Virus record (IMG/VR): IMGVR_UViG_2671180921_000004
Span: 1-7,745 of that record
Strand: one strand, 5' to 3'
DNA from: a virus
Taxonomy: Duplodnaviria; Heunggongvirae; Uroviricota; Caudoviricetes
Length of the DNA stretch: 7,745 nt
The notes under the pieces were generated by a model. It saw only the letters and a list, made by a program, of their open reading frames with translations, was not told where the DNA came from and did not search any database. A program made the position numbers and the translations under genes. The first letter of the stretch is position 1. Every line of letters begins with the position of its first letter. Shown here in pieces: positions 1 to 7,745 of the stretch.

Positions 1-16
1 GATAGCCATAAGTGTT

Positions 17-157
17 TTATCCATTTTGGGGAACTCCTGGCTGATTAAGTACGTCGATGAGTCGTTTCCATCCGTCACGTAATTTACGTGTGATTCGCTC
101 AAGTAAAGATTCGGAAGGGCAGCCAGCAACAGGCCACCCTGCAATGGCATATTGCAT
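17..157 (-). CDS. cIII: cIII-like regulatory protein (FtsH/HflB inhibitor that stabilises cII), 46 aa
   Basis: Not in the ORF track (under 60 aa). Minus-strand translation from the ATG at 157 gives MQYAIAGWPVAGCPSESLLERITRKLRDGWKRLIDVLNQPGVPQNG*, matching lambda cIII as I recall it almost residue for residue over the N-terminal 43 aa. A TAAGGAG Shine-Dalgarno lies about 6 nt upstream. Stop TAA is at 17-19 (plus-strand tta). Confidence 0.8.
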   Translation of the reverse strand: MQYAIAGWPVAGCPSESLLERITRKLRDGWKRLIDVLNQPGVPQNG

Positions 158-262
158 GGTGTGCTCCTTATTTACGCTTTAAATTGCTCCGTGTATTCAC
201 TCGTTGGAATGAATACACAGTGCAGTGTTTATTCTGTTGTTTATGCCAAAAATAAAGGCAGA

Positions 263-886
263 CTATGCGGCCTCGGAAGGAAGTCCAATCATCTTATTCA
301 AATCTTCTACCCGTAAAGCAGGAAGTGCTGTACTTGCTTTATCTGCTTCTTTTGGTAGCAATTCTTTGCTTTCAGGCCAAACTTCAATAAGTCGCTTAAC
401 TGTTGTGACTGAGTTCAAAGCAGCCCATACATTTGATTCGATATCCTTTTTCTTGTCTTCAAGTTTTTGTTGCAATGCGCAGATTTCATCAAACCTTTTT
501 GTTATTTCGTGTTCTGCGTCAAACATGCATTTATCTTTGGTCGGAGTAGGGAGCAATATATCTTCGCCGTTGCCGTCTTTCCCATATGAATGCCATCCAA
601 CCCTTCTGCCAGATACAGTCAGATAAATCGAAGTAGAACGAACATCGCATGAGTAAAATGAACATCCCATCTTTTCAAGTTCTTCACTTATAGCTACTAA
701 CCTGGATGATAACTGATCCACTTCATCAGTTTTCTTTTTACCGCCAAACGCAATAACTCTGGCGTCAAGTGCAAGCTGGTTCTTTAACTTTGTTACTTCT
801 TCAAGTTCAGTGAAAACCCCAGACTTAATTAAAGCGTTACGAGCGATTTCCTCTTTCATTCTCGTAGTTAAGCGGATTGATGACAT
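263..886 (-). CDS. hypothetical early-left (PL operon) accessory protein, 208 aa
   Basis: Long minus-strand ORF (track 263..946). The start was chosen at the internal ATG at 886 (MSSIRLTTRMKEE...), which is preceded by GAGAGGA; the longer track ORF would run to within 2 nt of the N stop. Same orientation as cIII and N. No family recognised from the sequence alone. Confidence 0.6.
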   Translation of the reverse strand: MSSIRLTTRMKEEIARNALIKSGVFTELEEVTKLKNQLALDARVIAFGGKKKTDEVDQLSSRLVAISEELEKMGCSFYSCDVRSTSIYLTVSGRRVGWHSYGKDGNGEDILLPTPTKDKCMFDAEHEITKRFDEICALQQKLEDKKKDIESNVWAALNSVTTVKRLIEVWPESKELLPKEADKASTALPALRVEDLNKMIGLPSEAA

Positions 887-947
887 ATTAATTCCTCTCA
901 AATAAGTGGTTTGCTGCCTAATTTCATTTTCTGGCGACCAACACAAG

Positions 948-1220
948 TCATCTTGCTGTCAGTTGTTTGGATTTCCGGTAGCCTGCCGCGTAAAGAGCTA
1001 CGTTCGGAAGACAAGTTGAGCCTTCATATTTTCTGGTCAACGTTGTCAGTGTTATTACTTCTGCTCTCATTGCTGGTTTGCGCTTGCATTGCAAGACCAC
1101 TCGAGAGGGGGTTGGTCTGTGTAGCTTGTCGGAGCTAATCGCCTCCTGACTTTGCAGGTTTGCGCGACGAGCTCTACGACGAGAAGCTGAGGTGCCTTTA
1201 AATTCTGTTTTTCTGGACAT
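948..1220 (-). CDS. N: N-like transcription antitermination protein, 90 aa
   Basis: Start taken at the ATG at 1220 (MSRKTEFKGTSASRRRARRANLQSQ...), preceded by GGGAGGA. The N-terminal arginine-rich motif SRRRARRA resembles the lambda N ARM (QTRRRERRAEKQ). The C-terminus LPNVALYAAGYRKSKQLTAR resembles the P22 gene 24 (N-like) C-terminus as recalled. It lies immediately downstream of the nutL and PL elements. Confidence 0.75.
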   Translation of the reverse strand: MSRKTEFKGTSASRRRARRANLQSQEAISSDKLHRPTPSRVVLQCKRKPAMRAEVITLTTLTRKYEGSTCLPNVALYAAGYRKSKQLTAR

Positions 1221-1318
1221 AGATTCCTCCCGAATAAACTTTGGTGATGCAATCTCGAAGCTCCTCCTGAGACGGTTGCTTCGGCATTGCATCCCACAGC
1301 TCATGTGGTTGGGTGATC

Positions 1319-1365
1319 TGGCTTTTCAGCCACGTAGTCGAGAGTTCGACGTTGTTTAAAGAGCC
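1319..1365 (-). promoter_or_regulatory. nutL: nutL site: boxA-like GCTCTTTAAACAAC (1351-1364) and boxB hairpin UGGCU-GAAA-AGCCA (1319-1332) on the leftward transcript
   Basis: Read on the minus strand, GGCTCTTTAAACAACG is followed 18 nt later by TGGCTGAAAAGCCA (5-bp stem, GAAA loop). Both elements have near-identical counterparts at nutR (4084-4129). Position between PL and N matches lambdoid layout. Confidence 0.6.
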
Positions 1366-1410
1366 TGCCAGTCTGTTCCGTTTGGCTTCCAGCGTCCTGC
1401 TGACGGTTAA

Positions 1411-1439
1411 ATAGTACGATATGTACTTTATTGGGTCAA
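1411..1439 (-). promoter_or_regulatory. PL promoter with embedded operator (OL1-like): -35 TTGACC (1434-1439), 17-bp spacer, -10 TACTAT (1411-1416)
   Basis: Minus-strand read is TTGACC-caataaagtacatatcg-TACTAT. The spacer and -10 region carries AAAGTACATATCGTACT, which is 15/17 identical to a motif in the PR spacer (3813-3829). Confidence 0.55.
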
Positions 1440-1625
1440 TACGATTTGTTCTAAAATAGGGTGGTTTTTTATAACACTTTGTATTTAATAGTGTTGTTTT
1501 TTAGCGTGGGTGTATCGCCTCGGCGATGTAAGGAGAGATCAGAATTGCGTGGTTTAGTGAGTTGTATCTATTTATTTTTCAATAAATACATTTGGTTATG
1601 TGTTTTTAGGTGGCGAACGTGAGGC

Positions 1626-1651
1626 AAAGAAAACCCGGCGCTGAGGCCGGG
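1626..1651 (-). terminator. rho-independent terminator closing the leftward cI/TAC transcription unit
   Basis: On the minus strand the hairpin CCCGGC-ctcagc-GCCGGG (plus 1634-1651) is followed by TTTTCTTT (plus 1626-1633). It sits 10 nt downstream of the stop of the SecB-like gene. Confidence 0.6.
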
Positions 1652-1660
1652 TGGGGAATT

Positions 1661-2065
1661 TCACTTATTACTGTTCGTTTCCATGGGATTGGCCAAGAAA
1701 TCAAAATAAGGCAGAGTGAACCTACCAAGATTTGACATGAGGATAATTTGCTCGGCATATGTTTTTATATAGGGATATGCCATATTGGGAGCAATGGACC
1801 TTACCTCATATGATTTTGCCATTTCATGAGAAAAATCATCTTCTGACCGGAAGTCAAAGTCGTATGTGATGTCCATCTCAAGCCTGCCTTCAATAGTTAC
1901 GGAGGCAAAATATCTCACTCTAAATAGCTTTGAATCCTTCACATTAGTGTAAAGTTCATTATTTAGATTAACGGTTGTTTTTATGGCTTTTTTTGCTGTT
2001 GAATCGCCTTCTAGCCGTGTCATAACCAAGCGTTCAACTTTTTTGCTAATGAGTTCAATTTTCAT
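1661..2065 (-). CDS. SecB-like chaperone, third gene of a toxin-antitoxin-chaperone (TAC) cassette, 134 aa
   Basis: ORF track 1661..2065. Its start ATG overlaps the upstream gene's stop by 4 bp (ATGA), indicating translational coupling. The C-terminal region ...SIAPNMAYPYIKTYAEQIILMSNLGRFTLPYFDF... resembles the E. coli SecB segment ...[38 protein letters not shown]... as recalled. Size is similar to SecB. Product call is from memory-based similarity only. Confidence 0.6.
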   Translation of the reverse strand: MKIELISKKVERLVMTRLEGDSTAKKAIKTTVNLNNELYTNVKDSKLFRVRYFASVTIEGRLEMDITYDFDFRSEDDFSHEMAKSYEVRSIAPNMAYPYIKTYAEQIILMSNLGRFTLPYFDFLANPMETNSNK

Positions 2066-2718
2066 GGTAATAATAAGTAATTTCCGTCAGAAGTCATTTC
2101 GTCATTCAGGTTGCTAGCCGCTGTGAAACTTGATGACAAGTTACTTATCAAAGAAAAAACATTCCGTTTTTCTTTGCATTTGCCGTTACCCCTTACTGCG
2201 CTGAACAACATTTTTGAAAAGTAAGATTCTGTAGCCTTTTCAGCGAAATAAGCAGAAGGTGATGTGACGGCTGACTCACACCGAGCAATGACGCTAGTCA
2301 TGGCTGTTTCTTCTTCCTCTGCGTCAACTAGGCTCCATTCAATTGCGCTCATATCTTGAATTAAGATATCTGCAGGAATTCCAAGTCCGTCATGTAGTCT
2401 ACGGATCATTGAAAGACTTAATGGACGCTTACGATTTAAGACCTCAGATACTTTAGATGCTGAGCCAATGTATTGTTTCATATCGGCATAAGAGAGGCCT
2501 TGTTGATCCATACGGAACTTGATTGCTTCTATGGGATCTGGCTTGTCCATAGGGAACTCGCGTGACTCATAGTGCTCGATAAGCAAGCCTAGTAGTTCAA
2601 ACTCATCAAAATCTTCAGTTCCAGGTTGTAAATCACTAGACGCAAGTTCAATGAGCCTTTCCATAGCTGCAGCATGCTCTTCACTATTTTTAATGATGCG
2701 CCAGCTAGTTCGATTCAT
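2062..2718 (-). CDS. higA: HigA-family HTH (XRE-type) antitoxin with a ~96-aa C-terminal extension, 218 aa
   Basis: ORF track 2062..2718. Residues about 66-121 (IKFRMDQQGLSYADMKQYIGSASKVSEVLNRKRPLSLSMIRRLHDGLGIPADILI) align with the HTH end of E. coli HigA (...IRTLMDQYGLTLSDLPEIGSKSMVSRVLSGKRKLTLEHAKKLATRFGISPALF) as recalled. GGAGG lies 5 nt upstream of the ATG. 4-bp ATGA overlaps with the HigB stop upstream and the SecB-like start downstream. Confidence 0.8.
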   Translation of the reverse strand: MNRTSWRIIKNSEEHAAAMERLIELASSDLQPGTEDFDEFELLGLLIEHYESREFPMDKPDPIEAIKFRMDQQGLSYADMKQYIGSASKVSEVLNRKRPLSLSMIRRLHDGLGIPADILIQDMSAIEWSLVDAEEEETAMTSVIARCESAVTSPSAYFAEKATESYFSKMLFSAVRGNGKCKEKRNVFSLISNLSSSFTAASNLNDEMTSDGNYLLLP

Positions 2719-3002
2719 TTAAGCCTCCACTTGTCGTACTCTGCATGAGTTCCAACTCTTTCAACTATGACCATTCCTGCCTGGTAAACAACTTGGACAA
2801 CGAGCCGATAGTTATTGCCTTTTATATTAAAAATTACCCTGTTGTTAGGAAGGAAGTCGGCAGAATTAAATCTATTCCGTATGTCTTGAGTCGTTTTCCA
2901 GTTTTCTCTTATCACTTCATCATACCAAGAGTCTAAAGCCCCCTTGGCCTGATTGTGCTTCCGGCTAAAACTGTGAAGCTTCTCTACGTTTAAGACCTTC
3001 AT
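2715..3002 (-). CDS. higB: HigB-family toxin (RelE/ParE superfamily mRNA interferase), 95 aa
   Basis: ORF track 2715..3002. The segment NRVIFNIKGNNYRLVVQVVYQAGMVIVERVGTHAEYDKW aligns with E. coli HigB HYVFNVGGNELRVVAMVFFESQKCYIREVMTHKEYD as recalled. Toxin-first gene order is typical of higBA. Confidence 0.85.
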   Translation of the reverse strand: MKVLNVEKLHSFSRKHNQAKGALDSWYDEVIRENWKTTQDIRNRFNSADFLPNNRVIFNIKGNNYRLVVQVVYQAGMVIVERVGTHAEYDKWRLK

Positions 3003-3024
3003 AATCCGATTTTGTTCCCTCTTT

Positions 3025-3057
3025 GGGAATTATAGATTCATTTCCCATAAAGGGAAT
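3025..3057 (-). promoter_or_regulatory. putative promoter and operator of the higB-higA-secB-like operon: -10 TATAAT (minus strand, plus 3029-3034) flanked by GGGAAT / TTCCC-ataaa-GGGAA inverted repeats
   Basis: A perfect TATAAT hexamer on the minus strand lies 26 nt upstream of the higB ATG. GGGAAT occurs at 3025-3030 and 3052-3057, with TTCCC at 3042-3046 forming the dyad TTCCC-ATAAA-GGGAA. No good -35 is visible. Antitoxin autoregulation sites are typically palindromes over the promoter, which is the basis for the operator call. Confidence 0.35.
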
Positions 3058-3087
3058 CTGTATTTTTATCCAGAAATGCTATGTACA

Positions 3088-3747
3088 TCACCCAAACGTC
3101 TCTTCAGGCCACTGGCTAGCGATAACTTTCCCCACAACGGAACAACTCTCATTGCATGGGATCATTGGGTACTGTGGGTTTAGTGGTTGTAAAAACACCT
3201 GACCGCTATCCCTGATCAGTTTCTTGAAGGTAAATTCATCACCACCAAGTCTGGCTATGCAGAAATCGCCGGGCTCAACAGCTTGCTCTGGGTCAACCAG
3301 AATTAACATCCCGTCAGGAAAACTAGGTTTGGAACCTGTTGGGGCGGTCATTGAGTTACCTTCAACCTCAAGCCAGAATGCAGAGTCACTGGCTTTTTTG
3401 GTTGTGCTTACCAATCTCTCCGCATCGCCTTTGGTAAAGGTTCTGAGTTCTGGAGAGAACATCCCAGCCTGAACATGAGAAAAAACAGGGTACTCATATT
3501 GTTTTTTAACTGGGGCCGATGAGTATTCGCCAACAGGTGAAAATGTCCCGTCGTGGTTGAATGATATGTTATCAATACCAAGGTATTTAAACACCACACC
3601 AATATCACTAAGAGATGGATGACGAGATCCGCGCAACCAGTGTCCAATCCCACCCTGCGTCATACCTAGCTCTTCGGCTAACTTCTCTTGAGTTATGCCG
3701 AGCTCTTTCATTCTGGATCTAGCCAGTTCATACCATTTCATTTTCAT
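3088..3747 (-). CDS. cI: cI-type prophage repressor: heterologous N-terminal HTH domain fused to a lambda-cI-like C-terminal LexA/S24 autocleavage and dimerisation domain, 220 aa
   Basis: The C-terminal ~135 aa ([28 protein letters not shown]...[18 protein letters not shown]) are near-identical to lambda cI as recalled, including the Ala-Gly cleavage region and the catalytic Ser/Lys context. The N-terminal ~85 aa ([45 protein letters not shown]...) are not lambda-like. Start taken at the ATG at 3747 (alternative ATG at 3741); the track ORF extension to 3909 would cross the operator region into cro and is rejected. Confidence 0.9.
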
Positions 3748-3857
3748 GTCCTTATTATTACGCTCTGTATTGCAACCATCCATGCACAATGTGTATTTTT
3801 GCTTGCATTCAAAAAGTACATATTGTATTTTTTCTTCATGGTTACTATGGAGGGCAT
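3748..3857. promoter_or_regulatory. OR region with divergent PRM/PR; PR -35 TTGCAT (3803-3808) and -10 TATTTT (3826-3831); operator-like repeats with TGTATT cores at about 3760-3775, 3784-3799 and 3813-3829
   Basis: 110-bp gap between divergent cI and cro. The motif AAAGTACATATTGTATT (3813-3829) sits in the PR spacer and -10 and matches the PL spacer motif at 15/17 positions. Two further related repeats (CACAATGTGTATTTTT, CTCTGTATTGCAA) recur at about 26-32 bp spacing. Confidence 0.55.
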
Positions 3858-4073
3858 ATGAGCAACCTACGAAAATATCGAGAGTCACTGAATATCTCTC
3901 AAACAACACTTGCTAAGGCAGTTGGATGCACACAGGGAGCTATCGGACATTGGGAATCTGGTCGTCGCTTCCCAGACCTTAAAACATGCCGTGCTCTTGT
4001 TGCGTGTCTAAACAAGTTAGGCGCAAAAGTAAGTCTTGATGACGTGTTCCCGCCGGAGCACAAATCCGCTTAA
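3858..4073 (+). CDS. cro: Cro-like HTH (XRE-family) regulator, 71 aa
   Basis: Start at ATG 3858 with GGAGGG 4 nt upstream. The HTH region [24 protein letters not shown] parallels the cI N-terminal HTH ([24 protein letters not shown]), as expected for two proteins sharing operators. Divergent from cI. The longer track ORF from 3789 lacks an RBS and overlaps the operators. Confidence 0.8.
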
Positions 4074-4083
4074 TAAGCGGAGC

Positions 4084-4129
4084 CGCTCTTTGTAACAACG
4101 GACATTCGTCCTACGTCGCTGAAAAGCGA
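4084..4129 (+). promoter_or_regulatory. nutR: nutR site: boxA CGCTCTTTGTAACAAC (4084-4099) and boxB hairpin UCGCU-GAAA-AGCGA (4116-4129)
   Basis: Immediately downstream of cro. Near-identical in architecture and sequence to the nutL elements on the opposite strand (boxA GCTCTTT..AACAAC; boxB N-GCU-GAAA-AGC-N). Confidence 0.6.
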
Positions 4130-4214
4130 GCCCCAAGATATCTGACCAACTAAGGCCATATGCGTTTCCACGCATACCTTTCAACTAACTATTCACTATT
4201 GGAAATCTTAAGAA

Positions 4215-4511
4215 ATGGAACAAACAAGTTACAGCAAACTATCACAGCGTGACGTTGATCGCGCAGAAACAGATTTACTCATCAACCTGTCAACGCTTAC
4301 CCAGCGTGGTCTGGCAAAGATGATTGGCTGTCATGAATCGAAGATAAGCAGAACGGACTGGCGGTTTATTGCTTCGGTCTTGTGTGCTTTCGGAATGGCA
4401 TCAGACATCAGTCCAATTAGCAGGGCTTTTAAGTATGCGCTTGATGGAATCACAAAGAAAAAACGCCCGGCGGCAACCGAGCGTTCTGAACAAATCCAGA
4501 TGGAGTTCTGA
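4215..4511 (+). CDS. cII: cII-like transcriptional activator, 98 aa, with a lambda-identical C-terminal tail and a divergent N-terminal region
   Basis: The C-terminal 18-19 aa (KKKRPAATERSEQIQMEF) match the lambda cII C-terminus as recalled. The N-terminal ~80 aa differ from lambda. Position between cro/nutR and O is canonical. Confidence 0.8.
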   Translation: MEQTSYSKLSQRDVDRAETDLLINLSTLTQRGLAKMIGCHESKISRTDWRFIASVLCAFGMASDISPISRAFKYALDGITKKKRPAATERSEQIQMEF

Positions 4512-4533
4512 GGTCATTACTGGATCTATCAAC
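4457..4533 (-). ncRNA. oop: oop antisense RNA (about 77 nt), antisense to the 3' end of cII, with its rho-independent terminator
   Basis: The minus-strand sequence GTTGATAGATCCAGTAATGACCTCAGAACTCCATCTGGATTTGTTCAGAACGCTCGGTTGCCGCCGGGCGTTTTTT matches the lambda oop RNA as recalled. GC-rich hairpin (plus 4464-4483) followed by a U-tract. Confidence 0.6.
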
Positions 4534-4543
4534 AGGAGTCATT

Positions 4544-5443
4544 ATGACAAATACAGCAAAAATACTCAACTTCGGCAGAGGTAACTTTGCCGGACAGGAG
4601 CGTAATGTGGCAGATCTCGATGATGGTTACGCCAGACTATCAAATATGCTGCTTGAGGCTTATTCAGGCGCAGATCTGACCAAGCGACAGTTTAAAGTGC
4701 TGCTTGCCATTCTGCGTAAAACCTATGGGTGGAATAAACCAATGGACAGAATCACCGATTCTCAACTTAGCGAGATTACAAAGTTACCCGTCAAACGGTG
4801 CAATGAAGCCAAGTTAGAACTCGTCAGAATGAATATTATCAAGCAGCAAGGCGGCATGTTTGGACCAAATAAAAACATCTCAGAATGGTGTATCCCTCAA
4901 AACGAGGGAAAATCCCCTAAAACGAGGGATAAAACATCCCTCAAATTGGGGGATTGCTATCCCTCAAAACAGGGGGACACAAAAGACACTATTACAAAAG
5001 AAAAAAGAAAAGATTATTCGTCCGAGAATTCTGGCGAATCCTCTGACCAGCCAGAAAACGATCTTTCTGTGGTTAAACCGGATGCTGCAATTCAGAGCGG
5101 CAGCAAGTGGGGAACAGCAGAAGACCTGACCGCCGCAGAGTGGATGTTTGACATGGTGAAGACCATCGCGCCATCAGCCAGAAAACCGAATTTTGCTGGG
5201 TGGGCTAACGATATCCGCCTGATGCGTGAACGTGACGGACGTAACCACCGCGATATGTGTGTGCTTTTCCGCTGGGCCTGCCAGGACAACTTCTGGTCCG
5301 GTAACGTGCTGAGTCCGGCCAAACTCCGCGACAAGTGGACCCAGCTCGAAATCAACCGTAACAAGCAACAGGCAGGCGTGACAGCCAGCAAACCAAAACT
5401 CGACCTGACAAACACTGACTGGATTTACGGGGTGGATTTATGA
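4544..5443 (+). CDS. O: replication initiation protein O (origin-binding), 299 aa
   Basis: Translation matches lambda O as recalled (MTNTAKILNFGRGNFAGQERNVADLDDGYARLSNMLLEAY...). AGGAG RBS upstream. Contains the ori iterons internally. Stop overlaps the P start (ATGA). Confidence 0.95.
   Translation: MTNTAKILNFGRGNFAGQERNVADLDDGYARLSNMLLEAYSGADLTKRQFKVLLAILRKTYGWNKPMDRITDSQLSEITKLPVKRCNEAKLELVRMNIIKQQGGMFGPNKNISEWCIPQNEGKSPKTRDKTSLKLGDCYPSKQGDTKDTITKEKRKDYSSENSGESSDQPENDLSVVKPDAAIQSGSKWGTAEDLTAAEWMFDMVKTIAPSARKPNFAGWANDIRLMRERDGRNHRDMCVLFRWACQDNFWSGNVLSPAKLRDKWTQLEINRNKQQAGVTASKPKLDLTNTDWIYGVDL
4892..5016. other. origin of replication (ori-lambda type): four ~19-bp iterons with internal dyad TCCCTC-N5-GAGGGA, followed by an AT-rich DNA-unwinding region
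   Basis: Iterons visible at about 4892-4910, 4911-4930, 4931-4955 and 4956-4980 (ATCCCTCAAAACGAGGGAA, ATCCCCTAAAACGAGGGAT, ATCCCTCAAATTGGGGGAT, ATCCCTCAAAACAGGGGGA), then AAAAGACACTATTACAAAAGAAAAAAGAAAAGATTA. Located inside the O coding sequence as in lambda. Confidence 0.85.
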
Positions 5444-6141
5444 AAAACATCGCCGCACAGATGGTTAACTTTGACCGTGAGCAGATGCGTCGGATCGCCA
5501 ACAACATGCCGGAACAGTACGACGAAAAGCTGCAGGTACAGCAGGTTGCGCAGATCATCAACGGTGTGTTCAGCCAGTTACTGGCAACTTTCCCGGCGAG
5601 TCTGGCTAACCGTGACCAGAACGAACTGAACGAAATCCGCCGCCAGTGGGTTCTGGCTTTCCGGGAAAACGGGATCACCACAATGGAACAGGTTAACGCA
5701 GGAATGCGCGTAGCCCGTCGGCAGAATCGACCATTTCTGCCATCACCCGGGCAGTTTGTTGCATGGTGCCGGGAAGAAGCATCCGTTATCGCCGGACTGC
5801 CAAACGTCAGCGAGCTGGTTGATATGGTTTACGAGTATTGCCGGAAGCGAGGCCTGTATCCGGATGCAGAGTCTTATCCGTGGAAATCGAACGCGCACTA
5901 CTGGCTGGTTACCAACCTGTATCAGAACATGCGGGCCAATGCGCTTACTGATGCGGAATTACGCCGTAAGGCCGCAGATGAGCTTGTCCATATGACTGCG
6001 AGAATTAACCGTGGTGAGGCGATCCCTGAACCAGTAAAACAACTTCCTGTCATGGGCGGTAGACCTCTAAATCGTGCACAGGCTCTGGCGAAGATCGCAG
6101 AACTCAAAGCTAAGTTCGGACTGAAAGGAGCAAGTGTATGA
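5440..6141 (+). CDS. P: replication protein P (DnaB helicase loader), 233 aa
   Basis: Translation matches lambda P as recalled (MKNIAAQMVNFDREQMRRIANNMPEQYDEK...). ATGA overlap with the O stop. Confidence 0.95.
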   Translation: MKNIAAQMVNFDREQMRRIANNMPEQYDEKLQVQQVAQIINGVFSQLLATFPASLANRDQNELNEIRRQWVLAFRENGITTMEQVNAGMRVARRQNRPFLPSPGQFVAWCREEASVIAGLPNVSELVDMVYEYCRKRGLYPDAESYPWKSNAHYWLVTNLYQNMRANALTDAELRRKAADELVHMTARINRGEAIPEPVKQLPVMGGRPLNRAQALAKIAELKAKFGLKGASV

Positions 6142-6428
6142 CGGGCAAAGAGGCAATTATTCATTACCTGGGGACGCATAATAGCTTCTGTGCGCCGGAC
6201 GTTGCCGCGCTAACAGGCGCAACAGTAACCAGCATAAATCAGGCCGCGGCTAAAATGGCACGGGCAGGTCTTCTGGTTATCGAAGGTAAGGTCTGGCGAA
6301 CGGTGTATTACCGGTTTGCTACCAAGGAAGAACGGGAAGGAAAGATGAGCACGAACCTAATTTTTAAGGAGTGTCGCCAGAGTGCCGCGATGAAACGGGT
6401 ATTGGCGGTATATGGAGTTAAAAGGTGA
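6138..6428 (+). CDS. ren: Ren protein (confers resistance to Rex exclusion in lambda), 96 aa
   Basis: Translation MTGKEAIIHYLGTHNSFCAPDVAALTGATVTSINQAAAKMARAG... matches lambda Ren as recalled. ATGA overlap with the P stop. Confidence 0.8.
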   Translation: MTGKEAIIHYLGTHNSFCAPDVAALTGATVTSINQAAAKMARAGLLVIEGKVWRTVYYRFATKEEREGKMSTNLIFKECRQSAAMKRVLAVYGVKR

Positions 6429-6453
6429 CCATCTACATCACTGAGCTAATAAC

Positions 6454-6486
6454 AGGCCTGCTGGTAATCGCAGGCCTTTTTATTTG
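6454..6486 (+). terminator. rho-independent terminator (tR2-like) downstream of ren
   Basis: Hairpin AGGCCTGC-tggtaatc-GCAGGCCT (8-bp perfect stem) followed by TTTTTATTT on the plus strand. Confidence 0.65.
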
Positions 6487-6500
6487 GGGGAGAGTAAATC

Positions 6501-6707
6501 GTGGTTGAGTTGATTTTTTCTGCATTGAGGATTCTCGGTGCTATGTGGATGGTGTCGACGTTCATTGCGGTTGTCGGAAGTTTTGTCCGGTTGGTAGGCG
6601 AAGGTAAAGACCTGGTGGGTGTGCTGTTCGGTAGCATTCTCCTGTGGGTGATTATCGGTGTTGCGCCTGTCGCTGTAGCAAAAATGGCGTGGCGTTTTGT
6701 TAGTTGA
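6501..6707 (+). CDS. small hydrophobic protein with two predicted transmembrane segments, 68 aa (GTG start)
   Basis: ORF track 6501..6707. Two hydrophobic stretches (ILGAMWMVSTFIAVVGSFV and LVGVLFGSILLWVIIGVAPVAVA). GGGGAGAG lies about 6 nt upstream of the GTG. Coding status is uncertain: short, non-ATG start. Confidence 0.4.
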   Translation: MVELIFSALRILGAMWMVSTFIAVVGSFVRLVGEGKDLVGVLFGSILLWVIIGVAPVAVAKMAWRFVS

Positions 6708-6714
6708 GGGGAAT

Positions 6715-6993
6715 ATGAGCGAGATCTACCGACAATTCGAAGAGTGGTGGTCAAAACACAAAAGCCCGTTCACGGAAGACGATGAGCTAAAAGAGTTTGC
6801 CTGGGAGATATGGCAGGCATCGCGAGCAACTATTGAACTGGATATCGACTGGCCCGAATCGAATGACGACTTTTGGAAAGATGGTGAAGAAGGTGCTTAT
6901 GCGATGGGTTATGAGGATGGGCGTGACAAAACGGTAATTGCAGTAATGAAAGCCATCAGGGCCGCAGGAATCAAAGAAAAGAATTTCGATTAA
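6715..6993 (+). CDS. hypothetical small acidic, Trp-rich protein, 92 aa
   Basis: Start taken at ATG 6715 (MSEIYRQFEEWW...), preceded by GAGGGG. About a quarter of residues are Asp/Glu. No recognised family. Confidence 0.55.
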   Translation: MSEIYRQFEEWWSKHKSPFTEDDELKEFAWEIWQASRATIELDIDWPESNDDFWKDGEEGAYAMGYEDGRDKTVIAVMKAIRAAGIKEKNFD

Positions 6994-7125
6994 GCAAATA
7001 TCACTTCAATAAATCGCTTTTAAGGCATCACAATCGCTCTGTAGTGAGGTAAGTGCGTGCAAGGAATGCCGATAAGCAGCGAGAATGAAAAATGCGTCAG
7101 AATGCGTTTGAGGAGGTTTTAAGAA

Positions 7126-7341
7126 ATGAGTACGGTAGCTGAACTTGTCAGGGCTAATTTTCGTGAAGAGTTGGTGCGTTGGTATCGGTATCGTTCATCG
7201 TCCAGTTTGCCGCTTGATGAGTTGTATGAGCATTCACCTGCCGCACGACGCTATCCGCGTGACCGTGTTCTTCGACGGTTGTTCAAACTCAACAATGAGT
7301 TTCAGCGCAACAGAATTATCCGGAGTCTGGATTTAAAGTGA
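7126..7341 (+). CDS. hypothetical small basic protein, 71 aa
   Basis: ORF track 7126..7341. Strong AGGAGG RBS about 9 nt upstream of the ATG. Arg-rich. No recognised family. Confidence 0.45.
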   Translation: MSTVAELVRANFREELVRWYRYRSSSSLPLDELYEHSPAARRYPRDRVLRRLFKLNNEFQRNRIIRSLDLK

Positions 7342-7351
7342 AGGAGTGAGC

Positions 7352-7534
7352 ATGAGCGAGCAAATATTCAGAGAGATTAAGCCACGGTTTTATCGCAAGG
7401 TAAGGGTGGTTTATCAGGACGAAAACAAGACCTGTGCATACGCCATTCATAATGGTCGGTGGTCAGTGTTCGACACCAAAAACTTCGAGAAGAACTTCGA
7501 GAGGATTAAGGGTGATGAGGAAACTAACATTTGA
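7352..7534 (+). CDS. hypothetical small protein, 60 aa
   Basis: Start taken at ATG 7352 (MSEQIFREIK...) with AAGGAG 5 nt upstream; the track ORF begins at the GTG at 7346. Its 3' end overlaps the ninB-like start by 20 nt. Confidence 0.45.
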   Translation: MSEQIFREIKPRFYRKVRVVYQDENKTCAYAIHNGRWSVFDTKNFEKNFERIKGDEETNI

Positions 7535-7745
7535 ACTAAGAAGCCCCATCCATCAGCAGAACGCCATTCCAGCTAGCCAGCAAATCCTGCCAGCCCCAAC
7601 CTAACCAACCGTAGTAACCATTCAGGACCGCAACCGTAGCTTAGACCACAACCGAAAGCTCCGAGATTGCCCTGGTGACGTCTCGCGTCAGGTTGAATGG
7701 CCGGATAGTTGTCTGGATGCCGAAAGCTGGACGTGTGTGTTTACC
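7515..7745 (+). pseudogene. ninB: ninB/Orf-family recombination protein homologue, interrupted by an in-frame TAA at 7602-7604 and truncated by the window end
   Basis: Frame from ATG 7515 reads MRKLTFELRSPIHQQNAIPASQQILPAPT*PTVVTIQDRNRSLDHNRKLRDCPGDVSRQVEWPDSCLDAESWTCVFT, versus lambda NinB MKKLTFEIRSPAHQQNAIHAVQQILPDPTKPIVVTIQERNRSLDQNRKLWACLGDVSRQVEWHGRWLDAESWKCVFT as recalled. The stop replaces the Lys codon at position 30. Not in the ORF track because of the stop. Confidence 0.5.

Follow-up and report, generated by a model that had tools for sequence, protein, structure and literature searches.

A HigB–HigA–SecB-like chaperone cassette in the rexAB slot of a lambdoid immunity region is very probably an allele of the Escherichia coli HigBAC anti-phage system

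What occupies the position of the rexA–rexB exclusion genes in the immunity region of the Caudoviricetes virus record IMGVR_UViG_2671180921_000004, and what might it do there? The stretch analyzed, hereafter the window, comprises positions 1 to 7,745 of that record, and between its cI-type repressor gene and the PL/OL region it carries a cassette of three minus-strand genes (genes 1 to 3 in the order of transcription). A sequence-only reading, made by a model without database searches, had interpreted these genes as a toxin–antitoxin–chaperone (TAC) cassette. Our computational follow-up allows a more specific assignment, made with high confidence: the cassette is one allele of HigBAC, a TAC anti-phage system of E. 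coli, and a lambdoid prophage carries it in its rexAB slot as cargo expressed in the lysogen. The system is not new, as it has already been described and mechanistically dissected in E. coli NT1F31 (Mets et al. 2024, bioRxiv 10.1101/2024.02.24.581848).

The three successive open reading frames (ORFs) were read from the ORF list and by direct translation, and encode proteins of 95, 218, and 134 aa (gene 2 spans 2062–2718; the remaining coordinates are given in Table 1). All three start with ATG and end with TGA, and a script located ATGA overlaps exactly at 2715–2718 and 2062–2065. Identical 4-nt overlaps occur in orthologous cassettes from Citrobacter, Serratia, and another Enterobacteriaceae strain, whose chaperones are 60–80% identical to that of the window, and this retention across orthologues favors coupling over chance. 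The gene order is that of a TAC system, with co-directional toxin, antitoxin, and chaperone genes in one operon, and the orthologues share this layout.

Local BLAST against lambda was used to delimit the cassette. Homology resumes at 1533–1652, which contains the terminator after rexB, and at 3087–3498, the C-terminal half of cI, with 92–94% identity. The breakpoints coincide with the rexB stop codon and with one base beyond the cI stop codon, and the non-lambda stretch between them, 1434 bp in length, lies precisely in the rexA–rexB position; therefore, the cassette replaces rexA–rexB exactly. Its G+C content is 40%, compared with 46–50% in the flanks, and Rfam and tRNA scans returned nothing inside it. 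After the third gene, the minus strand carries a terminator-like hairpin with a stem at 1633–1652 (7 pairs, 6 of them G–C) followed by TTTTCTTT to ~1623. The lambda terminator that follows rexB has this same sequence, and ~800 E. coli genomes match the window only at 1600–1652, including lambda lysogens where this segment abuts rexB. The terminator is thus a conserved part of the lambdoid backbone and belongs to that backbone as much as to the cassette. The sequence-only reading had proposed the three coupled genes with their two overlaps, their placement in the rexAB slot between cI and PL/OL, and a closing terminator at 1626–1651: the ORF listing and translation reproduced the coordinates and overlaps, the comparison with lambda made the placement exact, and the terminator was recovered with the nuance of its shared ownership.

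Gene 1 has a strong match to the Pfam family HigB_toxin (E = 4.5e-30; 104 bits, against a cut-off of 27) and to the PADLOC profile PD-Lambda-2_A (2.5e-42), and a PDB sequence search matched it to the E. coli/Shigella HigB structures 5YCL, 5IFG, and 6KML at ~1e-4. The Pfam and PDB matches assign it to a type II toxin–antitoxin (TA) toxin family.

Gene 2 combines a canonical antitoxin domain with an unstructured C-terminal extension, as expected of a TAC antitoxin. Its score against the Pfam helix-turn-helix (HTH) domain HTH_3 (20.9 bits) falls under the cut-off of 23; residues 53–119 match the E. coli/Shigella HigA structures 5YCL_A and 5IFG_B (5e-5) in a PDB sequence search, and the PADLOC profile PD-Lambda-2_B is matched at 3.8e-50 over profile positions 3–125 of 402 only. 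In the AlphaFold model, residues 1–125 form a confident, all-helical domain with a predicted local distance difference test score (pLDDT) above 90, for which the best Foldseek matches in the PDB are E. coli HigA 6KMQ_B and 6KML_B (30% identity over ~121 columns). Database searches separated the relatives of gene 2 into two populations, full-length proteins of ~210–229 aa and ordinary HigA proteins of 122–135 aa, the latter aligning with only the N-terminal ~125 residues (53–73% identity). The tail of ~95 residues is absent from these short homologues and is variable save for a few aromatic positions. Residues 129–218 are modeled at pLDDT ~40 and lack secondary structure, so the extra half of gene 2 is predicted to behave like a disordered tail.

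Gene 3 yielded zero matches in Pfam and NCBIfam, and searches of the PDB with phmmer and a 20-sequence profile returned only chance matches (an RNA polymerase subunit and a thioredoxin). Its sole PADLOC match is PD-T4-9_C, the profile of the SecB-like chaperone CmdC (3.2e-11). The AlphaFold model (pLDDT 86.9) comprises four antiparallel strands and a long helix, and its top Foldseek match is the M. tuberculosis SecB-like chaperone Rv1957 in complex with a chaperone-addiction (ChAD) peptide (5MTW; TM-score 0.73–0.75, E = 5e-7), followed by E. coli and H. influenzae SecB; across 5MTW, 1QYN, and 1FX3, TM-scores range from 0.70 to 0.77 and E-values from 5e-7 to 3e-6. We are confident from this model that gene 3 adopts the SecB fold predicted for the third component of a TAC system. 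A housekeeping role as SecB export chaperone was considered and rejected, given that the protein matches no SecB family in Pfam or NCBIfam and is encoded in a prophage immunity region; housekeeping secB lies in the context yibN-grxC-secB-gpsA (Mets et al. 2024). The family assignments that had been made from the letters alone (a HigB-family toxin, a HigA-family HTH antitoxin of about twice the usual length, and a SecB-like third protein) are all borne out, as are the RelE/HigB, HigA HTH, and SecB folds expected for them. The proposed resemblance to the M. tuberculosis TAC architecture likewise agrees with the families recovered and with Rv1957, the protein it named, as the closest structural match of gene 3.

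Which TAC system the cassette belongs to can be read from landmarks published for NT1F31 HigBAC. These comprise a HigA C-terminal extension (ChAD) at residues 122–218 with aromatic residues W128, F158, F188, and Y214 and a C-terminal Leu-Pro, and the HigC residues Y39, N41, R49, and D71 (Mets et al. 2024). All are found at the same positions in the window, where HigA is 218 aa long, has W128, F158, F188, and Y214, and ends in Leu-Pro, and HigC has Y39, N41, R49, and D71. In addition, nine segments of the NT1F31 cloning primers (Dataset S1 of Mets et al. 2024) were mapped to the window. Seven have zero mismatches, including those at the higB start (2973–3002 and 2979–2999), the higA/higC junction (2030–2089), and the higC start and stop (2038–2062 and 1661–1685); the terminator primer has a single mismatch at 1622–1641, and the −150 upstream primer is not found. 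In NT1F31, too, HigBAC follows cI in a lambdoid prophage (Mets et al. 2024). From these landmarks and primer matches, the two are very probably one system, represented by identical or nearly identical alleles.

How the cassette is expressed was addressed from its upstream DNA. The 85-bp spacer between cI and higB contains a perfect TATAAT flanked by two TTCCC-N5-GGGAA palindromes, the only two in the window (Table 1). Across 8 loci (6 distinct sequences) in Citrobacter, Serratia, Pantoea, and other Enterobacterales, neither the TATAAT nor the proximal palindrome changes, whereas the N5 spacers and flanks vary; one of these loci is a Serratia copy that has no cI around it, and another is from Pantoea and encodes a chaperone with only ~50% identity. 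The element has the appearance of an independent promoter unit complete with operators for the antitoxin, the usual arrangement in type II TA modules. The cassette would then be transcribed from its own TATAAT promoter and autoregulated by HigA at both palindromes, possibly with additional read-through from PRM.

Several observations weigh against this account of the cassette. The proposed promoter has a poor −35 element (TTCCCT/ATTCCC) and was missed by a simple promoter scan. Searches by sequence miss SecB for gene 3, so that its assignment depends on the PADLOC profile and on predicted structure. The absence of the NT1F31 −150 primer means that the neighboring cI allele differs, and the expression context could differ with it. 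Finally, identity with NT1F31 HigBAC is drawn from ~12 landmark residues and lengths and ~180 nt of primer sequence rather than from a full alignment.

The experiments on NT1F31 define what such a cassette can do. HigBA is toxic without HigC, and HigC restores growth; HigA lacking residues 122–218 is chaperone-independent, and rescue is lost in a ChAD triple aromatic mutant and in HigC R49A. HigB specifically blocks translation. HigBAC confers protection from lambda-vir and from the siphovirus Bas25; phages that escape have the gpV substitution S54P, and co-expressing gpV sets off toxicity. A gpV 48–78 peptide binds HigC with a dissociation constant of 250 nM and competes with the ChAD peptide in isothermal titration calorimetry, whereas folded gpV-N does not bind HigC, which suggests co-translational sensing (all Mets et al. 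2024). In that work HigBAC was expressed from Ptet in K-12, and its scope was other than native regulation and Stx (Shiga toxin) phages.

Applied to the window, these data suggest the following sequence of events, in which the steps from chaperone dependence onward come from the NT1F31 experiments and the folds, architecture, landmark residues, location, and regulatory DNA of the window copy from in silico analysis. HigB would act as a ribosome-dependent, mRNA-cleaving toxin neutralized via the HigA N-terminal domain. The disordered ChAD tail of ~95 residues would render HigA non-functional unless wrapped by a tetrameric SecB-like HigC, with the regularly spaced W128, F158, F188, and Y214 held in equivalent HigC pockets. 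When lambda or another sensitive siphovirus infects, nascent gpV, the major tail protein, would present a similar aromatic/acidic pattern (W36...DDED...W67) and compete with the ChAD for HigC, so that HigA would be inactivated, HigB released, translation stopped, and the infection aborted. The sequence-only reading had offered a defence role as an inference, and that role has been demonstrated for the NT1F31 cassette, which the window copy matches at every published landmark; by analogy, the window copy likely shares it.

A system triggered by a tail protein raises the question of whether it would act on its own host phage. No lambda-gpV-like tail tube gene was found by tblastn in ST2-8624 (Sepvirinae), and none was detectable by tblastn in BP-4795, where a major tail protein has a marginal 25-residue similarity that falls outside the W36–W67 trigger segment. 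Both phages carry the cassette, and these results are suggestive of, and consistent with, a resident phage that does not trigger its own cassette; we infer that self-triggering would be avoided in resident phages.

The full cassette is present in 88 of 5426 complete E. coli genomes (~1.6%), at ≥99% identity in 87 of the 88, and the exact sequence of each of the three proteins occurs on at least 1000 contigs. Among the Stx-converting phage records listed, it is 99.6% identical in BP-4795, ST2-8624 (the Stx2 phage of O157:H7 86-24), and many Stx1a phages. BP-4795 and ST2-8624 share only 1525–3118 with the window and have a different cI. An H-19B/BP-4795-type immunity region was accordingly rejected for the window, as local BLAST shows only this segment to be shared and cI/cro to be of the VT2-Sakai/1717 type. 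The window cI/cro allele (3087–4100) is of the VT2-Sakai/Stx2-phage-1717 type and is found in 773 complete E. coli genomes. Next to the same cI, other phages have different cargo in the slot, namely a 173-aa hypothetical protein (phage 1717) or a BRO-family protein (E2348/69). Neither among complete E. coli genomes nor among phage records does any sequence cover ≥80% of the window, and the combination of this cI with the cassette is therefore a rare mosaic.

Beyond E. coli, orthologous cassettes with chaperones 50–80% identical occur in prophages of Citrobacter, Pantoea, and other Enterobacterales, where various S24 repressors immediately precede them. The Serratia marcescens cassette, at ~4055–5405 of its locus, shares the promoter/palindrome element, is accompanied by a comparable terminator hairpin, and adjoins no repressor; its neighbors are a DUF927 primase-like gene on one side and P22-type ejection genes (gp7, gp20-like, and gp16) on the other. 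This copy in a non-repressor slot indicates that the module moves as a unit between prophage slots.

Public annotation gives little indication of this system. In vB_EcoS_ST2-8624 (KU238070.1, 11386–12843), higB is uncalled and the other two genes are labeled "hypothetical protein", as are all three in BP-4795 (AJ556162.1); across public records the chaperone is a "hypothetical protein" and HigA a "transcriptional regulator". We found no literature linking HigB/SecB to Stx prophages. The practical value of the present analysis lies in annotation: a defence system that has been characterized is under-annotated in E. coli genomes and in Stx1- and Stx2-converting phages of medical relevance. Two small, testable additions are the conserved promoter/operator element and the exact replacement of rexAB. 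The analysis also illustrates that a reading from sequence alone can recognize a TAC defence system in a lambdoid immunity-region hotspot, and adds no new biology.

A bolder extension of these results, which we regard as unlikely, has two parts. The cassette would be an autonomous unit, autoregulated by HigA through its own promoter and operators and thereby independent of cI/PRM, and it would serve as an inter-prophage weapon in enterohemorrhagic E. coli (EHEC) and other multi-lysogens. Were it true, the cassette carried by Stx phages without a lambda-gpV-type tail tube (ST2-8624 and BP-4795) could abort co-induced lambda-tailed prophages or superinfecting siphoviruses, and would thereby shift both the identity of the phage set free upon SOS induction and the amount of Shiga toxin.

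Far less probable is an ordinary two-gene HigBA addiction or stabilization module next to an unrelated small gene, which would maintain the prophage by post-segregational killing rather than act in chaperone-gated defence. HigB and the HigA N-terminal domain are indeed conventional, and gene 3, publicly a hypothetical protein, gives no sequence match in Pfam, NCBIfam, or the PDB. However, the ATGA overlap of gene 3 is conserved in orthologues, its confidently predicted SecB fold is closest to a TAC chaperone and is accompanied by the CmdC profile match, and ordinary HigA has no disordered tail of ~95 aa; together with the NT1F31 HigBAC experiments, in which HigBA is toxic in the absence of HigC and phage defence is conferred, these points largely refute this explanation.

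The chances are slimmer still that the cassette belongs to the PD-Lambda-2 family, a system with a HigB-like protein, a toxic HigA–peptidase fusion, and a P4-antitoxin-like third factor (Vassallo et al. 2022). PD-Lambda-2_A and PD-Lambda-2_B are the strongest PADLOC matches of genes 1 and 2 (2.5e-42 and 3.8e-50). The defining features of the family are a C-terminal peptidase in component B, itself toxic, and a P4-antitoxin-like component C (Vassallo et al. 2022, PMC9519451), whereas in the window the B match ends at profile position 125 of 402, the peptidase domain is missing and a disordered tail stands in its place, and gene 3 matches PD-T4-9_C with a SecB fold rather than a P4-antitoxin-like component. 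As both the peptidase and the P4-antitoxin-like component are wanting, membership in PD-Lambda-2 was rejected. Equally hard to credit is a decayed or silent passenger, functionless in the lysogen, for although the overall mosaic of the window is rare, with no complete E. coli genome covering ≥80% of it, the three ORFs are intact, their exact proteins recur on at least 1000 contigs each, identity is ~≥99% in 87 of 88 carrier genomes and many Stx phages, and promoter, palindromes, and terminator are conserved. A HigBAC allele thus remains our preferred interpretation of the cassette.

Table 1 Features of the cassette and its flanks in the 7,745-nt window
Feature	Position	Strand	Basis and details
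Putative own promoter and operators	3015..3056	−	TATAAT 3034–3029; palindromes 3056–3042 (over −35) and 3029–3015 (over start site)
higB, 95-aa HigB/RelE-family ribosome-dependent mRNA interferase toxin	2715..3002	−	Pfam, PADLOC, and PDB matches; NT1F31 primer
higA N-terminal domain, residues 1–121, canonical HigA HTH antitoxin/DNA-binding	2356..2718	−	PDB sequence, Foldseek, PADLOC
higA C-terminal extension (ChAD), residues 122–218 then stop codon, W128/F158/F188/Y214	2062..2355	−	pLDDT, alignment, published landmarks
higC, 134-aa SecB-like chaperone (SecB-TA)	1661..2065	−	PADLOC profile, AlphaFold/Foldseek, pocket residues, primers
Intrinsic terminator closing the operon	1623..1652	−	Terminator scan; alignment with lambda, Citrobacter, and Serratia loci
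cI-type repressor, HTH + S24 peptidase, VT2-Sakai/Stx2-phage-1717 immunity type	3088..3741 (or 3747)	−	Pfam Peptidase_S24 1.1e-28, HTH_3 1.9e-10; annotated homologues
PL-like promoter and OL operator-like repeats	1405..1503	−	Promoter scan; repeats common to the cI/cro intergenic region
N gene	948–1304		Pfam N_peptide 7.6e-32

The flanks of the cassette are those of a lambdoid phage. The C-terminal half of cI (S24 peptidase/oligomerization; 3087–3498) has 94% DNA identity to lambda cI, whereas neither its DNA-binding N-terminal part nor the operators are related to those of lambda; judged from these alignments, the window cI gene contains a recombination joint and encodes a hybrid repressor. 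The PL-like promoter on the minus strand has a −35 element TTGACC at 1439–1434, a 17-nt spacer, and a −10 element TACTAT at 1416–1411. T-rich direct repeats are present on the OL side (1455–1503; AATAGGGTGGTTTTTTA and AATAGTGTTGTTTTTTA) and on the OR side (3792–3836; TGTATTTTTGCTT and TGTATTTTTTCTT), in both cases with 32-bp spacing, and an AGTAC-N5-GTACT palindrome lies at 1413–1427. The way in which operators are arranged in this immunity type probably accounts for these repeats and the palindrome.

The remainder of the window corresponds to a typical lambdoid early region with cro (3858–4073), cII, O, P, Ren, and cIII. Just after cro, a palindrome with a 7-bp stem (TCCGCTTATTAAGCGGA; 4065–4081) was flagged as terminator-like on the minus strand; in this phage type it may represent the hairpin of the tR1/nutR region. 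The Rfam cIII thermoregulator Lambda_thermo was detected at 112–170 on the minus strand (88.5 bits, E = 3.7e-21), overlapping the start of the 46-aa cIII ORF at 17–157. Between N and cIII, a 227-aa protein encoded at 263–946 on the minus strand is a full-length match to Pfam Nmad5 (nucleotide modification associated domain 5; E = 9e-71). In BP-4795 and ST2-8624 this position is taken by another hypothetical gene, of 156 aa; it may be a further variable cargo site.

Comparison with known systems places the cassette among several partial relatives and one close match. Lambda RexAB is a two-protein membrane-depolarizing exclusion system and not a TA system. It occupies the identical slot, from the cI stop codon to the terminator upstream of OL, and is likewise lysogen-expressed exclusion cargo, but it has no homology to the cassette. 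CmdTAC/PD-T4-9 (Vassallo et al. 2022; PMC11618068) is similar in chaperone type only, through the match of gene 3 to PD-T4-9_C; its toxin CmdT is an mRNA ADP-ribosyltransferase rather than a HigB, and its antitoxin is unrelated. CmdTAC targets T-even phages and has a different structural protein as trigger (PMC11618068; Mets et al. 2024). Assignment of the cassette to CmdTAC/PD-T4-9 was rejected, as gene 1 is a HigB and neither PD-T4-9_A nor PD-T4-9_B was matched.

PD-Lambda-2 has a closely related HigB-like component and a HigA-like N-terminal domain, and both it and the published HigBAC protect against lambda-vir. Beyond this shared HigB/HigA core, the two differ in their back ends, which in the window consist of the ChAD and the SecB-like chaperone. 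The M. tuberculosis TAC system HigB1–HigA1–Rv1957 resembles the cassette in all three components, a HigB toxin, a HigA with a C-terminal ChAD, and a SecB-like chaperone. The chaperones are 16–17% identical, however, and the window ChAD is more than twice as long, has four aromatic motifs, and ends in Leu-Pro instead of the Val-Ala ClpXP degron; in NT1F31, HigBA toxicity is ClpXP-independent (Mets et al. 2024). The M. tuberculosis locus is also a chromosomal stress-response locus, unlike the prophage defence locus of the window. The closest counterpart is NT1F31 HigBAC, with the same three genes in the same order, the same HigA length, ChAD, aromatic residues, and Leu-Pro end, the same HigC pocket, and the same site after cI. 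The two differ in the upstream flank, with the window copy standing behind a cI of the VT2-Sakai/1717 type.

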